Shown piece after piece: positions 17,024 through 38,788 of a stretch of 64,000 bases of DNA (position 1 is its first letter; each line of letters begins with the position of its first letter). The notes beneath the pieces are model-generated. The model saw only the letters and a list, made by a program, of their open reading frames with translations. It was not told where the DNA came from and searched no databases. Source of the stretch: Eledone cirrhosa. Lineage: Eukaryota. The position numbers and the translations under genes were made by a program. The DNA lies in the NCBI GenBank assembly GCA_964016885.1, contig OZ024741.1, forward strand, positions 374,604,001 to 374,668,000. The letters run 5' to 3'.

Positions 17024-17223
17024 CTAATATGTCATTGGAAGAGGGTCGTTTTCACCCGGTACTAAAGCCACACACATTGTGTCTGTAGACCCACTGCCTT
17101 CACCCCATCCACGCACTAACACAACTCGATCTCCGATTTTCAAATATCCTCTTTTCACAGTATTTTCAAAAGCTTTCCTGATTCCCAAATTATAATCATT
17201 TTCCTCATCACCTGTGAGTTGAC
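17024..17223 (-). CDS. PK-like terminal coding exon 11 ([66 protein letters not shown])
   Basis: ATGCAG phase-1 acceptor, TAG stop at 17024-17026; gapless alignment to the PK C-terminus. Confidence 0.93.
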
Positions 17224-20200
17224 CTGCATGTAAAATATCAGTTAAAGCATCTTTTAATACATAGGCTAACAAAATTATAACTAGCATTTTAGTATGTATT
17301 CTAACAAAATGACAAATTGCACCTGGGCCACACTTAAGGTGGTCATGCTGGTGACACTACAAAAAGCACACAGTCCACACTGTAAGGTTGTCCTGTTGGT
17401 GACACTACAGAAAGCACCCAGTCCACATTGTAAGGTGATCATGTTGGTGACACTACAAAAAGCACTGTCCACACTGTAAGGTTGTCGTGCAGGTGACACG
17501 ACAAAAAGCATCCAGTCTACATTGTAAGGTGGTTGTGTTGGTGACATAACAAAGTACCCGGTCCACACTGTAAGGTGGTCATGCTAGTGACATGACAAGT
17601 AGCACCCAGTTTACCCTGTAAGGTAGTTGGGCTGGTGACATGACAAAAAACACTGTGTCCACCCTCTCAGATGATCATTTCGGTGCCATGATAAAAAACA
17701 CCCAGTCCACATTGTAAGGTGGTTAGTGTTAGGAAGAGCATCAAGCCAAAATACAGATCCACATGAGCAATACGTGGCCTCTGGATCTGACATGTCTGAT
17801 AATGTGACAACCCATCCAACCCATGAAGGCATGGGAAATGGATGTTAAACAATGATAATGATGATAATTTTTATATCACTGAAGACTGGGTCTTTGGATT
17901 TGTCTTTATCATATTCTTAGCAATAACATTTTAATTTCCATCCAATTTTTCTCTCAGTTTTACTTCATAATGTAAAAATAAAAAAATGTTTTCATACCAG
18001 AAAATAATAGCATTGTGAATAAGAGGTGTCAACTGTCTATTAATGAAGGTTAAACAATTTTTTTTCCTATAAAAGTAGGACATATATAATGGTTTCTGAT
18101 TTAGGCACAAGGCCAGCAATTTTGGGGAAGAGGAAAGTCGATTAAATCGACCCCAGTGCATTACTGGTACTTATTTTATCAACCCTGTAAGGATGAAAGG
18201 CAAAGTTAACCTCAGTGAGTTTAGAACTCAGAATGTAAAGGGTCATAACTCTATGCTGCAAAGCATGGTGTCTGACGCTCTACCGATACTGTCAATCCAC
18301 TACCCTTCAATAGGACATATATAATGACAAGATTAATTTCTGGTGAACAGTACTGTTTAAATTGAGATATAAATTAGTTTTAAAAAAAAAGACAGTTTAC
18401 AGCAATTATCTCAAGGTTGAATTATATAATGGTCATAGTATGGAGTTAAATTTCAAGATAAAATAAAAAAAACAAAACAAAAACAAAATCTTACTTTGGT
18501 AAAGGAATGGAACAACTCCACGATAGAGATGGAGCTGTCTTGCTGTGATTGGTGTTCTGGTAACTGCAATCACTATACAACGTGGTCGATAACGAGAGAT
18601 GAGAGCAGCTGATCTGTAAATTGATATAGTAATAAATATCATTATAAAACACCATACCTAAATTTTATCAATTGTTTTACTTTTTCATGTTATAGATTTA
18701 TACACATTACTTATCTCAACTTTATCTAGCTGGAAAATAGTTCCATTAAATGGTAGCATGATTGTGAATAACTTCAAAGACTTTTATGAATCCTAGTTTT
18801 GTCATCTATCATCCAAGTTTCAATCCTACTAAGGTTAACTTTGCTTTTCATCCTTCAAGGGCCAATCAAATGAAATATAGATATTTCATTTTATAGTACC
18901 ACAGCTCCAATACTATGGGCATGTGGTCAGAATGTCACAGGAAAGAATTATTGGACAGATTTTACGGGCAAAACCAACCAGCAGGAGAGCCAGGAGTAGA
19001 CCCTGAGTAAGATGGTTGGATAACACCCATGACCTTGGCTGGTCACACTTGGGGATCGAGCCGGATCAGTTGGAGACGGTTGCTTCTGACAGGAACCGCC
19101 GGAAGAAGTGTTTGAGGACTCTGCCCCCACGACTCTCTCAGGAATAAGTGGGCAAAGAAAAAGAAAAATAAGATTTCATATTCTTTATAAATATTACATA
19201 AATTGTATTTATATTTACAAAATGGAATAAATAAAATATCAGTTGGTAAAAAAAAAAATTAAATAGAGTATCAGTCAAGTCTGGAGTAGGTGTGTGTGAG
19301 TGTGTGTGTGTGTGTGTAGGGGGGGGGACTTCAATTTAATCCACTAAATCTTCGCTCTTCCTACAAATGTTTCGCCTTGCTCCAACGCCAGAAATTAATT
19401 TTGATACATAAACAAAAACAAACAGAAAATAAACAAACTTACTTTCCTGAAGAAGTGACTACAACAATAGCTTTAGCTTTGCAGCTTATTGCTCCTTTCA
19501 CAGCTGCTAGGGCTGTTGCCTGTTCCTTGCTCAAATTAATATCACTCAATGTACTCAAATCTTTCATAAACTGGTAACTGAACATGGCACCTTCGGCTTC
19601 ACGACAGATCTGCAATGAAGTTCACATTAACTCTTAACAAGCCATAATGATTAACTCTTTAGCATTTGTATTACTCTATACTTACTAGTGTATTTTCACA
19701 GTAAAGGCTTTGCCTCACATAATTATCTCATATAATATCAAATCTATGATTTTGATATTATTTATTTTGAGAAAAATACCTTAACATTTGTATGAGTGGC
19801 TGGTTACAGCCAGTTTGAACAGAAAGAGGTGAGAGAATTTTGGCTGGATATGGCCGGTTTAAATGCTACAGGGTTAACAGAAAACATTCTAGATAGGCAT
19901 TTCTTAGTGACAGGATAAAGAGAAATTAGTTTCATTGTTGGTCGGACCTCTGGTATACTGCCATCATTAAGTACCAGTAATTCACTGGGTATTTGCTGGC
20001 CTTGTGCCAAAAAGTAGAAACAATTATTATCTTCATCACCATTTAACCCTTTAGCATTTAAACCAGCCATAACCAGCAGCTCACACTGATGTTAACATAT
20101 CGATCTAAAAATAAACAATAACATCATTAAAATCTTGTAGACTCGAGATTATGTGAGAAGAAGCCTTTACCATGAATATAAAATAGTAAATATAGAATAA

Positions 20201-38200: not shown

Positions 38201-38788
38201 TTACAACATGGACTAGGCAGTTTTTGTCGTGTCGCTGACCTTCATCATCATCATCATCATCATTTTTCGTCCGCTTTTCCCTGCTTGCAAGGGTGGGACG
38301 GGAACTGATTCTGGCTTGATTTCTACAGCTGGATGCCCCGCCTAACACCAACCTCATTTACAGTGCTTTTTTGCTGTGGCACCTCCACGACCACTTTACA
38401 GTGGAATGATATGGACCCAGTCCCTATCATCTCATTTCTACAGCTGAGTAAACTGGAGCAATGTGAAATAAAGTGTCTTGCTCAAGGAAACAACACATCA
38501 CCCGGTCTGAGAATTGAACTCATGACATTTCGATTGCAAGCCCAATGCTCTAACCACTAAGCCATGTGCCTTCACTGATACTATTTACTGATCTCAACTC
38601 CTAGCAAAATAAGAAGAAAGGAAATGAGTTAAAAAAAGAAAAATGTGCTCACCTACAGTAGCTATAATACTGGTCATGTGTGGCATCTTTACCTGAGGTG
38701 AATCAATATCCAAAGAGCAGAGGTGCTCCATGAAGGAATGTTCCTTGTCCACTGACGACCACATTGAATGCATTCCAACATCAACCAT
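17024..38788 (-). CDS. Pyruvate kinase (PKM-like) divergent paralogue, complete CDS of 11 coding exons, 535 aa; candidate catalytically impaired
   Basis: Hand-spliced exons: 38788-38653, 33668-33574, 31286-31167, 30499-30313, 27652-27501, 25296-25169, 23779-23629, 21987-21835, 19609-19443, 18613-18495, 17223-17024. Total 1608 nt, open frame, all GT-AG. Colinear with PK motifs [83 protein letters not shown]...[17 protein letters not shown]. Confidence 0.95.
17325..17865 (+). repeat. RTE-tail-derived non-autonomous repeat with internal 48-bp tandem array
   Basis: About 8 units of CACACTGTAAGGTGGTCATGCTGGTGACACTACAAAAAGCACCCAGTC, then the RTE-type 3' end with a (GAT)n tail; shorter arrays at about 23240-23570, 25360-25720 and 9680-9940. 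Confidence 0.75.
18495..18613 (-). CDS. PK-like coding exon 10 ([40 protein letters not shown])
   Basis: TTACAG acceptor, phase-1 GTAAGA donor; canonical PK C-domain motif. Confidence 0.95.
18920..19170 (+). mobile_element. 3' end fragment of another RTE-like LINE
   Basis: Translates to [37 protein letters not shown] RTE C-terminus followed by an A-rich tail. Confidence 0.55.
19443..19609 (-). CDS. PK-like coding exon 9 ([55 protein letters not shown])
   Basis: TTGCAG acceptor, phase-2 GTAAGT donor, 167 nt; equivalent of the vertebrate PKM exon 9/10 segment (IAREAEAA...AIIVLTKSG). Confidence 0.92.
21835..21987 (-). CDS. PK-like coding exon 8 ([51 protein letters not shown])
   Basis: Part of ORF 21703-21987; TATAG acceptor, CAG|GTATGG donor; strong PK barrel motif. 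Confidence 0.95.
22212..22441. repeat. Polypurine (GAA)n / (GGA)n microsatellites
   Basis: Pure (GAA)n run at about 22380-22441 and a degenerate run at 22212-22283. Confidence 0.95.
23629..23779 (-). CDS. PK-like coding exon 7 ([51 protein letters not shown])
   Basis: TGTCAG acceptor, CAG|GTCAGT donor, 151 nt; aligns to [50 protein letters not shown]. Confidence 0.93.
25169..25296 (-). CDS. PK-like coding exon 6 ([42 protein letters not shown])
   Basis: TTTCAG acceptor, phase-2 GTATGC donor; contains the catalytic Lys and Mg-ligand Glu of the KIE motif. Confidence 0.93.
27501..27652 (-). CDS. PK-like coding exon 5 ([51 protein letters not shown])
   Basis: Polypyrimidine tract plus CAACAG acceptor (phase 1), CAG|GT donor; aligns to LVTEVENGGSLGSKKGVNLPG...SEKDIQDLKFGVEQ. 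Confidence 0.88.
28232..29600. repeat. 34/35-bp intronic minisatellite with three unit types
   Basis: Units TGTATGGCAGTGAACACTGAGGAAGTACTGTAAG, TGTAAGGCAGTGACACACAACAGATACACTGTAAG and TGTATGGTAGTGAACACTGAAGAAACACTGTAAG; about 40 copies. Confidence 0.95.
29765..29955. repeat. 32-bp tandem repeat (6 copies) amplified inside a SINE-like element
   Basis: CACCTAAGGTAAGTACTTGAGCCTGGTTCAAC at 29765, 29797, 29829, 29861, 29893 and 29925; flanks resemble the SINE seen at about 37490-37620. Confidence 0.9.
30313..30499 (-). CDS. PK-like coding exon 4, B (lid) domain ([19 protein letters not shown]...[33 protein letters not shown])
   Basis: AACTAG acceptor, phase-1 GT donor, 187 nt; aligns to VELKKGATLKITLD...LWLDYKNI...IYVDDGLISLQV. 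Confidence 0.88.
30946..31052. repeat. (GA)n microsatellite
   Basis: Direct reading; another lies at 45338-45412. Confidence 0.97.
31167..31286 (-). CDS. PK-like coding exon 3 ([40 protein letters not shown])
   Basis: TTACAG acceptor, GTAAGT donor, 120 nt; aligns to YHAETIKNVR...PVAVALDTKGPEIRTGLIKG. Confidence 0.9.
33574..33668 (-). CDS. PK-like coding exon 2 ([32 protein letters not shown])
   Basis: AAACAG acceptor, GTAAGT donor, 95 nt; aligns to [31 protein letters not shown]. Confidence 0.9.
34235..34594 (+). repeat. Tandem duplication (180-bp period) of a 5'-truncated tRNA-SINE plus flank
   Basis: Two near-identical units starting TCGGTAGAGGGTCGGA at 34235 and 34415. Confidence 0.9.
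34808..35420 (-). mobile_element. RTE 3' fragment
   Basis: [13 protein letters not shown]...[12 protein letters not shown] 35197-35457 followed by the RTE-type 3' UTR and (GAT)n tail. Confidence 0.8.
35465..36780 (-). mobile_element. RTE-clade LINE 3' portion, relatively young
   Basis: ORFs 36448-36768 ([12 protein letters not shown]) and 35765-36496 (VDSFCYLGD...MLHGSETW...[11 protein letters not shown]); (GAT)n tail near 35465. Confidence 0.92.
38653..38788 (-). CDS. PK-like coding exon 1 ([46 protein letters not shown])
   Basis: ATG at 38788 with an in-frame stop shortly upstream; phase-1 donor G|GTGAG; acceptor TTTCAG at 38829-38830 implies a further upstream non-coding exon; matches PK N-terminus FLEHMCRLDIDS...TGIICTIG. 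Confidence 0.9.

Follow-up and report, generated by a model that had tools for sequence, protein, structure and literature searches.

An old molluscan pyruvate kinase paralogue in Eledone cirrhosa that is probably a pseudoenzyme

A 64,000-nucleotide stretch of the Eledone cirrhosa genome (the window) carries a gene for a pyruvate kinase (PK) with an altered active site, which raises the question of whether its product is a working enzyme, a decaying copy or a protein with another role. The gene model occupies the minus strand from 38788 to 17024, where 11 exons combine into 1608 nt and 535 amino acids with a single terminal stop. GT-AG boundaries are found in 10/10 introns and the reading frame has no internal stop. 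In two contigs from sequencing run X3 (depth 101 and 135), exons are joined at the junctions of the model with the introns absent. A search of sequencing runs listed no RNA run that carries the gene, and X3 is recognised as transcript-derived only by this splicing. The features are listed below in the order of transcription, with human residue numbers that were checked against the PKM chain.

38789..38828, minus strand: likely 5' untranslated part of exon 1, with a pyrimidine-rich AG acceptor at 38829
38653..38788, minus strand: coding exon 1, aa 1-46; N-terminal helix within the large subunit interface
33574..33668, minus strand: coding exon 2, aa 46-77; R73 retained; N75V, S77A, H78Y
31167..31286, minus strand: coding exon 3, aa 78-117; D113, E118, R120 retained; T114I, K115A, T121F
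30313..30499, minus strand: coding exon 4, B-domain lid; D177E, L180P; an X3 contig shows it spliced straight to exon 5
27501..27652, minus strand: coding exon 5, nucleotide loop; K207Q, G208T, N210H; X3 contig
25169..25296, minus strand: coding exon 6; F244L, R246T; K270 and E272 retained
23629..23779, minus strand: coding exon 7; R294, G295 retained; D296N (codon 23730-23728), E300N, T328S
21835..21987, minus strand: coding exon 8, with an intact helix of the large A-A' interface; G363S; K367 retained
19443..19609, minus strand: coding exon 9, covering the small C-C' interface, which has diverged strongly, and phosphate pocket T432/S434/G435; X3 contig
18495..18613, minus strand: coding exon 10, C domain; S437, H464 retained
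17024..17223, minus strand: coding exon 11 and stop; W482E, R489G; effector-loop glycines retained; X3 contig
16900..17023, minus strand: 3' untranslated region; X3 contig; the transcript extends 116 nt past 16900

The first-pass annotation of the window had claimed an intact 535-residue frame over 11 GT-AG exons, and the X3 contigs, spliced at the modelled junctions, bear this out. The two coding differences listed between the contigs and the gene model are both synonymous. Exon 7 lies within a spliced X3 contig and has one synonymous allele at 23755; the 119 nt of exon 10 equal the spacing of exons 9 and 11 in an X3 contig. When the exons were searched individually, 10/11 matched PF00224/PF02887 in profile order (barrel and B domain, then C domain). 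Exon 1 gave no match to either profile in this search and was matched by tblastn to the O. sinensis orthologue (74%). An X3 contig also holds about 170 nt upstream of exon 4 beyond what coding exons 1-3 provide, and a putative non-coding first exon probably lies further right of 38829.

Relative to human PKM, the paralogue carries N75V, S77A, H78Y, T114I, K115A, K207Q, G208T, N210H, F244L, R246T, A293S, D296N, E300N, T328S and G363S; every active-site substitution that had been proposed holds against the human chain. The additional changes T121F, D177E, L180P, W482E and R489G had been overlooked, as had a canonical PK neighbour and the phylum-wide range of the paralogue. Retained residues are R73, D113, E118, R120, K270, E272, R294 and K367, and likewise S362 and E364. 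As a result, 2/5 residues are left in the K+ site (N75, S77, D113 and T114 with E118). The nucleotide and lid residues, which we take to be H78, R120, T121, D177, D178, K207, G363 and K367, are reduced to 3/8, compared to 8/8 in canonical rows. D296N, found in 7/7 cephalopod rows, deprives the enzyme-bound metal of one ligand; the other, E272, is retained. R73 and K270 are kept and T328 is replaced by serine, a conservative change. N75V, S77A, H78Y, T114I and K115A are identical in 6/6 other cephalopod rows, as are K207Q, D296N, T328S and G363S, and the substitutions are therefore neither chance nor assembly errors.

PMC4284704 reports that rabbit T120L (human T121) lowered Vmax 400-fold and that T113L and K114Q (human T114 and K115) had minor effects singly. 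Position 121 is phenylalanine in the E. cirrhosa paralogue and leucine in most cephalopod orthologues. The weight implied for the listed changes thus has to be reduced at T114 and K115, mild when altered alone, and at T328.

An intact canonical PK gene sits 19 kb from the paralogue in a tail-to-tail arrangement. Intron positions are common to both genes and the two proteins are 41% identical. Two exon searches of the genome identified no PK copies beyond these two loci. A cephalopod-only duplication of the neighbouring gene was considered and ruled out by an AU test (p=9.7e-08). Orthologues in Octopus and Argonauta are 80-82% identical to the paralogue, and a clade supported at 100/100 unites it with chiton, bivalve, gastropod and cephalopod proteins, so that orthologues are present in four mollusc classes in a tree that follows the species tree. 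Grouping by convergent active-site decay was rejected, as a 13-row clade was still recovered at 100/99 with 72 active-site columns removed. The paralogue shares 11/21 states diagnostic of the non-cephalopod members versus 3 canonical states, and from these alignments long-branch attraction appears unlikely as the cause of the grouping. Among 354 further proteins listed, which cover annelids, brachiopods and nemerteans thinly, there were no non-mollusc members of the clade. Members of the lineage include XP_014780485 and XP_029645964 (Octopus), XP_011431107/K1QRW8 (M. gigas) and LOC111138044 (C. virginica). The earlier octopod-level frame was too narrow: the paralogue is pan-molluscan and far older than supposed.

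Only fast evolution speaks for a recent pseudogene or an artefact of assembly, the paralogue being 41-58% identical between classes or orders and canonical PK 73-78%. As far as sequence can tell, this explanation is refuted by the open frame, the spliced contigs, the substitutions shared with six other cephalopod rows and the four-class orthologues that follow the species tree, and its probability is negligible.

How far the active site has decayed was tallied in 34 full-length divergent rows and 38 canonical rows, with site classes that we take to follow PK structural work. As a mean of rows, the K+ site keeps 1.9/5 residues in the divergent proteins versus 5.0 in the canonical, the nucleotide/lid site 2.9/8 versus 8.0, the PEP/metal site 7.3/9 versus 9.0, the FBP site 8.8/9 versus 9.0, and the A-A' interface 13.8/14 versus 13.7, with 14/14 in the E. 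cirrhosa paralogue. Glycines occupy four of the nine positions of the FBP site and may be structural. The FBP effector pocket, taken here as T432, S434, S437, W482, R489 and the G514-G520 loop, is eroded in cephalopods. W482 is kept in 35/36 clade rows and R489 in 29/36; the E. cirrhosa paralogue lacks both and retains 7/9, and thus its pocket appears eroded. The region at 291-350 is the most conserved in the clade (0.74 within the clade, 0.63 versus the canonical neighbour), and the B domain stands at 0.36 and 0.30, respectively.

At least one of R73, K270, E272, D296 and T/S328 is missing in 33/34 divergent rows, all five being present in the Aplysia row. D296 is lost in cephalopods, chiton, bivalves and abalones, E272 in limpets, and K270 in caenogastropods; the loss of different core residues in each lineage is expected under relaxed catalysis. 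These losses bear on the proposal that the protein is an active enzyme with altered chemistry or slow turnover, whether a K+-independent kinase, a kinase with another phosphoryl acceptor or an enzyme with an oxo-acid decarboxylase/aldolase-type activity. Core residues are indeed widely kept (R294, G295 and E364 in 36/36 clade rows, E272 in 34/36, R73 in 32/35, K270 in 29/36), cephalopods fix their substitutions strictly, and orthologues score 411-507 against TIGR01064, above its cut-off of 306. However, no catalytic set is common to the clade, since lineages differ in which metal ligand or acid-base residue they have lost. Side reactions also need the enzyme-bound metal that D296 ligates. According to PMC4284704, K+-independent PKs are defined by rabbit Lys117 (human 118) with Leu113 and Gln114. 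The paralogue shares hydrophobic residues with this type at human 114 and 121 and has no Lys at 115, its residues at 118, 114 and 115 being Glu, Ile and Ala. Lys118, the hallmark of these enzymes, is found in 0/34 clade rows with that column (20 G, 7 E, 3 A, 3 C and 1 R), and unlike in K+-independent PKs the metal and nucleotide ligands are also lost. An active enzyme is thus unlikely.

In contrast, the paralogue is probably a pseudoenzyme with little or no kinase activity. Inactivity would follow from several losses together: D296, K207, H78, the T121 hinge, G363 and the K+ site, for which no Lys118 compensates. With R73, K270, E272, R294, S362, E364 and K367 retained, the protein may still bind some ligands or carry out some chemistry.

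For the O. sinensis orthologue (81% identical), AlphaFold2 predicted the whole N-A-B-C fold of PK with a pLDDT of 87 when given a 60-sequence alignment of mostly canonical PKs; an 8-sequence version gave a pLDDT of 53. The orthologue model superimposes on human PKM1/PKM2 with a TM of 0.88-0.90 at 43% identity, reaching 0.90 with PKM2. With respect to canonical K+-dependent animal PK (human PKM1/PKM2, PDB: 8hms, 4fxf; PF00224 and PF02887; TIGR01064), the paralogue shares the fold, the intron positions of its neighbour, the A-A' interface and R73/K270/E272/R294, but replaces the K+ site, the nucleotide loop, the T121 hinge, D296, E300 and G363 and loses W482 and R489 of the FBP site. The first-pass suggestion of a folded but inactive or neofunctionalised protein is supported by the predicted fold of the orthologue together with splicing, conservation and lineage-wide catalytic losses.

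The role of such a protein may be considered in terms of its interfaces. The most likely role, if a tentative one, is that of a non-catalytic subunit in joint assemblies with canonical PK, and among the options raised in the first-pass annotation a hetero-oligomer regulator fits the conservation pattern best. In the small C-C' interface region, identity to the canonical neighbour is only 21%, which makes a normal mixed tetramer doubtful in cephalopods. A complex model of the Patella vulgata pair, a limpet pair rather than the E. cirrhosa paralogue, scored 0.81 versus 0.00 for the best control, with contact via the A-A' surface, at least 97% of contacts in agreement between runs and a partner pLDDT of at least 84. 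The mark for this score was reached by 51/78 solved complexes and 2/108 mismatched pairs. Since PK oligomers have already been solved and 10/12 close cousins also pass, the model shows likeness and not binding.

Conservation of A-A' is equally explained by self-assembly. A stand-alone non-catalytic homo-oligomer, serving as a sugar-phosphate or PEP sensor, a scaffold or a bulk structural protein with no binding to canonical PK, would account for the retention of fold, A-A' interface and phosphate pocket while catalysis decays, and for a small interface that has diverged from canonical PK. The cephalopod stem is very long (1.3 changes/site), the crown is short (0.1-0.25), and 57 changes at canonical-invariant sites are fixed in all seven cephalopod rows, as expected of a protein under constraint in a new role. 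This explanation is rather unlikely, since an A-A' surface that has stayed near-canonical for more than 500 million years, instead of drifting to an interface of its own, is easier to understand if it has to go on matching canonical PK.

Co-assembly would occur through the conserved large A-A' interface, and the mixed oligomers may, by diluting active sites, reduce or readjust the conversion of phosphoenolpyruvate to pyruvate. Outside cephalopods, sugar-phosphate binding at the kept FBP pocket could be relayed across the R342/R294 interface. The cephalopod form, further changed by D296N, N75V, the loss of R489 and a rebuilt small interface, may act as a dimer-level cap rather than an FBP sensor. 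Arabidopsis plastid PK is a precedent for a PK of unlike subunits, and co-assembly in this heteromeric enzyme was reportedly proven by Andre et al. in 2007. It is a plant protein from an unrelated duplication, and molluscan co-assembly is only predicted.

The C. virginica orthologue, presumably XM_022489825.1 as mapped by accession offset, is expressed in gill and gonad alongside canonical PK and is absent from a set of 683 gonad genes with male bias, sperm genes among them. The expression filter was only 10 reads, and the listing is therefore not proof of co-expression with canonical PK in the same cells. In O. sinensis, 0/2 PK-activity genes, their identity being inferred, were testis-up (Table S7, PMC11202624) in a comparison of 3 versus 2 samples of immature gonads where Tssk and Pgk2 were detected. 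In the C. gigas gonad proteome (PMC8534442, Table S1), 2/3 PK-like groups were 6-7x higher in ripe diploid males than in females; the group identifiers are not assignable to one paralogue.

Drosophila provides a comparison in the Pyk-like paralogues CG7069, CG2964, CG7362, CG11249 and CG12229, which are likewise divergent PK duplicates, Pykl1 being in tandem with Pyk; the 'like' suffix marks predicted pseudoenzymes (PMC11836677). The fly genes show testis bias and cluster with insect Pyk (PMC10755183), while the molluscan paralogue is a single lineage in four mollusc classes; the trees here were built without fly proteins. With this precedent and the C. gigas male gonad data, the paralogue might be a pseudoenzyme confined to sperm or testis, with a structural or regulatory part in the flagellum. 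The gill expression and the lack of male bias in C. virginica, along with the O. sinensis result, make this improbable. Thus, the testis-restricted insect analogy drawn earlier does not hold in two RNA datasets, and the oyster proteome hints at male enrichment. An O. maya testis 'PKM' contig (E 7.93e-117, PMC6341066, supplement 4) was set aside as ambiguous between the divergent gene and a partial canonical contig; in a mimic search the divergent gene gave E-values of 1e-120 to 1e-148 and the canonical gene 0.0. The searched supplement files of PMC4232546 contained no PK rows, nor did PMC8353863.

No prior description of the paralogue was found in the literature searched, and full-text searches by accession and by mutant returned nothing. 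Databases label it 'pyruvate kinase' since it passes the standard PK profile, and omics studies may misread it as glycolytic flux. Predicted animal PK pseudoenzymes have so far been mainly testis-biased fly duplicates; the molluscan one spans chitons, bivalves, gastropods and cephalopods. The PK/PEPCK branch point underlies molluscan anoxia tolerance. If the paralogue is a regulatory subunit, it would offer a new testable lever on this branch point and a natural experiment that separates the allosteric and interface machinery of PK from catalysis. A fuller reading, somewhat unlikely as a whole, is of a dedicated pseudo-PK subunit that predates the mollusc classes. In somatic tissue it would assemble with the single active PK, sense metabolites and act as a brake at the PEP branch point; cephalopods would later have rebuilt it for a new role. 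Such a brake would supply a missing piece of the PK regulation, both tissue-specific and linked to anoxia, that biochemical work has long described in molluscs.

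A six-frame translation of the window located the quoted pyruvate kinase (PK) motifs on the minus strand, and exon limits were fixed by AG/GT positions together with the reading frame. The divergent gene has 11 coding exons (38788 to 17024, minus strand; 1608 nt), GT-AG at all ten introns and 535 residues with a single terminal stop, reproducing the uninterrupted frame described in the first-pass annotation. All but one of the 11 exons match PF00224 or PF02887, following the profile order, and the active-site substitutions listed previously are all present, with their numbering verified against the human PKM chain. 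A splice acceptor precedes the start codon by 40 nt, and behind this acceptor is a two-codon upstream ORF (38789-38840, minus strand); a GC-richer patch near 45.5 kb (approximately 45400-45620) could hold a promoter or a non-coding first exon. As had also been claimed, the introns contain repeats, among them several minisatellites and, in intron 1, a piece of LINE-type reverse transcriptase.

Repeats in and around the divergent gene (window coordinates)
36451-36882 (minus), 40235-41134 (plus), 55064-55507 (minus): LINE-type reverse transcriptase / LTR-type RNase H fragments, with reverse transcriptase pieces in intron 1 and upstream
28232-29546: 34-bp minisatellite, 38 copies, intron 4
17328-17723, 23242-23420, 25377-25536: dispersed 48-bp tandem unit, introns 10, 7 and 5
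29765-29952: 32-bp array
34235-34595: SINE-like unit, 180-bp tandem duplication

Candidate PK exons at 6151 and 7040 (plus) and at 34268, 34448 and 43692 (minus) were rejected as a common SINE-like repeat, which by chance translates to five residues identical to the start of PK exon 8.

The divergent gene is transcribed. Four sequencing runs from one study, none recorded as RNA, matched the gene, and three of them were compared with window 16900-33800; one of these (X3, a single sample possibly from the assembled animal) yielded two intron-skipping contigs over the gene at depths of 101 and 135. Exon 4 is fused directly to exon 5, contig pieces stop at the modelled limits 17223 and 19609-19443, exons 9 and 11 are separated by 119 nt, the length of exon 10, and the 435 nt preceding exon 9 are three bases more than exons 6-8 together. 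Intronic pieces listed in X3 have a depth of only 3-5, and the two coding differences listed there are both synonymous (codons read by hand). That the gene is a pseudogene is extremely improbable.

Genome searches with exon 8 and with exon 7 returned two loci each, and a canonical PK adjoins the window.

Contig C2, approximately 374,589,109-374,602,010 (loci L003-L004), plus strand: canonical PK, just left of the window, start exon not located

All PK motifs are intact in this neighbour, which is arranged tail-to-tail with the divergent gene at a stop-to-stop distance of 19 kb. The two proteins are 41% identical, and seven internal exons are equal in length with phases in agreement; the pair therefore arose by DNA-level duplication. 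Equal-sized contigs suggest that both genes are probably on one chromosome in Patella, Littorina and Pomacea, and probably not on one in Ostrea edulis or Mytilus trossulus. Pomacea canaliculata has two adjacent divergent-type models, C0Q70_03424 and C0Q70_03425 (fetched proteins P0299 and P0138), on a contig equal in length to that of its canonical PK; they represent either a duplication of recent date or one gene split by annotation.

With exon 7 as query, Argonauta hians and Octopus sinensis each proved to have an orthologue (80-82% identical), the O. sinensis cluster also taking in O. vulgaris and O. bimaculoides, and further clusters lay at 67-68% identity. From full-length and profile searches, the same protein type occurs in the chiton Liolophura and the bivalves Mytilus, Ostrea, Crassostrea/Magallana and Saccostrea; among gastropods it occurs in Lottia, Patella, Gigantopelta, Haliotis, Littorina, Pomacea, Batillaria, Aplysia, Biomphalaria, Bulinus and Candidula. 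Databases name the mollusc members 'pyruvate kinase', 'PKM-like' or hypothetical. B-domain segments recur several times in the Liolophura model (P0021), a feature that probably reflects an error of the gene model or the assembly.

A hand-picked alignment set 38 canonical rows beside 36 divergent ones, the latter being the window protein plus 35 fetched proteins. In a 71-row tree, omitting two partial rows and one near-duplicate, 33 divergent rows formed one clade (SH-aLRT 100) with separate branches for cephalopods, bivalves, gastropods and the chiton. Support was 100/100 in a careful 28-row tree and still 100/99 after removal of 72 active-site columns, and a grouping of the cephalopod copies with the canonical neighbour was rejected (p-AU 9.7e-08). 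Since the clade is mollusc-wide and the cephalopod-only grouping fails, the aligned sequences indicate a duplication older than the split of the mollusc classes, which occurred more than 500 million years ago. The window protein agrees with the divergent state at 11 of the 21 columns diagnostic of non-cephalopod members and with the canonical state at 3; canonical rows score at most 4. Of 354 other fetched proteins of at least 300 aa, 41 scored as members, all from known clusters, and the next best scored at most 8. Identity in the same five species pairs is 41-58% for divergent PK against 73-78% for canonical PK, so the divergent protein evolves faster. The cephalopod stem measures 1.3 changes per site, and the cephalopod rows have 283 invariant columns in common, 57 being changes at canonical-invariant sites.

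Ten residues invariant in all 38 canonical rows are missing from every, or almost every, divergent row that has a residue at the position: S77, T114, K115, D177, K207, G208, N210, R246, E300 and G363. E118, equally invariant, is retained among divergent rows by cephalopods only. The sites tallied below are classed as in PK structural work, except for the K+ site, whose residues, like T120, come from PMC4284704.

Mean residues retained (34 full-length divergent rows; canonical rows)
K+ site: divergent 1.9 of 5; canonical 5.0
Nucleotide/lid: divergent 2.9 of 8; canonical 8.0
PEP/metal: divergent 7.3 of 9; canonical 9.0
FBP site: divergent 8.8 of 9; canonical 9.0
A-A' (large) interface: divergent 13.8 of 14; canonical 13.7

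Selection has allowed the K+, nucleotide and metal sites to erode by different routes, yet has preserved the large interface and, except in cephalopods, the effector pocket. The window protein has a complete A-A' interface, has lost D296 and carries T328S. It alone among the 36 divergent rows lacks W482 of the FBP site (Trp482 to Glu, 17201-17203, minus strand), and R489 is absent from all seven cephalopod rows. A Tyr83 to Ser change (31284-31286, minus strand) is likewise private to Eledone cirrhosa among the aligned rows.

Useful PK activity has probably been lost. At least one of R73, K270, E272, D296 and T/S328 is missing in 33 of 34 divergent rows, the residue lost varying by lineage. The sole exception, Aplysia (P0308), retains all five without D178 or the K+/nucleotide set and is the best candidate for residual activity. 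According to PMC4284704, rabbit T113L and K114Q had little effect singly, which makes those two changes weak evidence. In contrast, T120L cut Vmax by a factor of 400, and Phe occupies that position in the window protein. The Lys at 117/118 described there for K+-independent PKs is present in none of the aligned divergent rows. Altered catalysis is an unlikely explanation.

The predicted fold of the O. sinensis orthologue is confident (pLDDT 87, pTM 0.88) and superimposes on PKM2 with a TM of 0.84-0.90 over 514 columns. Since the underlying alignment was mostly canonical PK, active-site geometry is not readable from this model. Modelled as a complex, the canonical and divergent chains from Patella vulgata gave a score of 0.81 (best control 0.00); of solved complexes 51 of 78 attain the mark, and of mismatched pairs 2 of 108. 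Model runs share at least 97% of contacts, partner pLDDT is at least 84, and the N-terminal helix and 296-346 helices form the modelled contact, which is the large interface. Solved structures exist for PK dimers, and close relatives of true partners usually pass this test, so the pair is read as structurally compatible only. In the region of the small interface, identity between the window protein and the neighbouring canonical PK is 21%.

The most economical role, proposed tentatively, is that of a subunit within the PK oligomer. Such a subunit would dilute the active sites and could relay effector binding through the R342/R294 interface, the relay mechanism of canonical PKs. Arabidopsis plastid PK is reportedly heteromeric. 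A stand-alone sensor or scaffold is rather less probable than such a subunit.

A sperm-specific role, in line with the testis-PK analogy drawn earlier, is quite unlikely. We take XM_022489825.1 (LOC111138044) to be the record for XP_022345533, the C. virginica orthologue, as predicted from an accession offset. It was found to be a PK-like gene, one of two PK loci listed for C. virginica in PMC12040131, where it is among gill- and gonad-expressed genes (filter only 10 reads) and shows no sex effect, against 683 male-biased genes including sperm genes. Neither of two O. sinensis genes with PK activity was testis-up in immature gonads in PMC11202624; these are presumably the canonical/divergent pair. 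The analogy keeps some footing in the C. gigas gonad proteome of PMC8534442: two of three PK-like groups, whose ids come from an unpublished assembly and cannot be assigned to a paralogue, exceed the female level 6-7 times in ripe males, with some protein also in females and in sterile triploids. If these are the paralogues, their joint rise would fit co-assembly and sperm enrichment alike.

By homology and fold the divergent protein is a PK family member; its residues fit neither an active K+-dependent nor a K+-independent PK, and in its predicted working is most like a pseudoenzyme subunit. A search of the open-access literature yielded no description of a divergent molluscan PK. The nearest described case is that of the Drosophila Pyk-like paralogues, testis-biased and placed in a group of mostly predicted pseudoenzymes (PMC11836677, PMC10755183).
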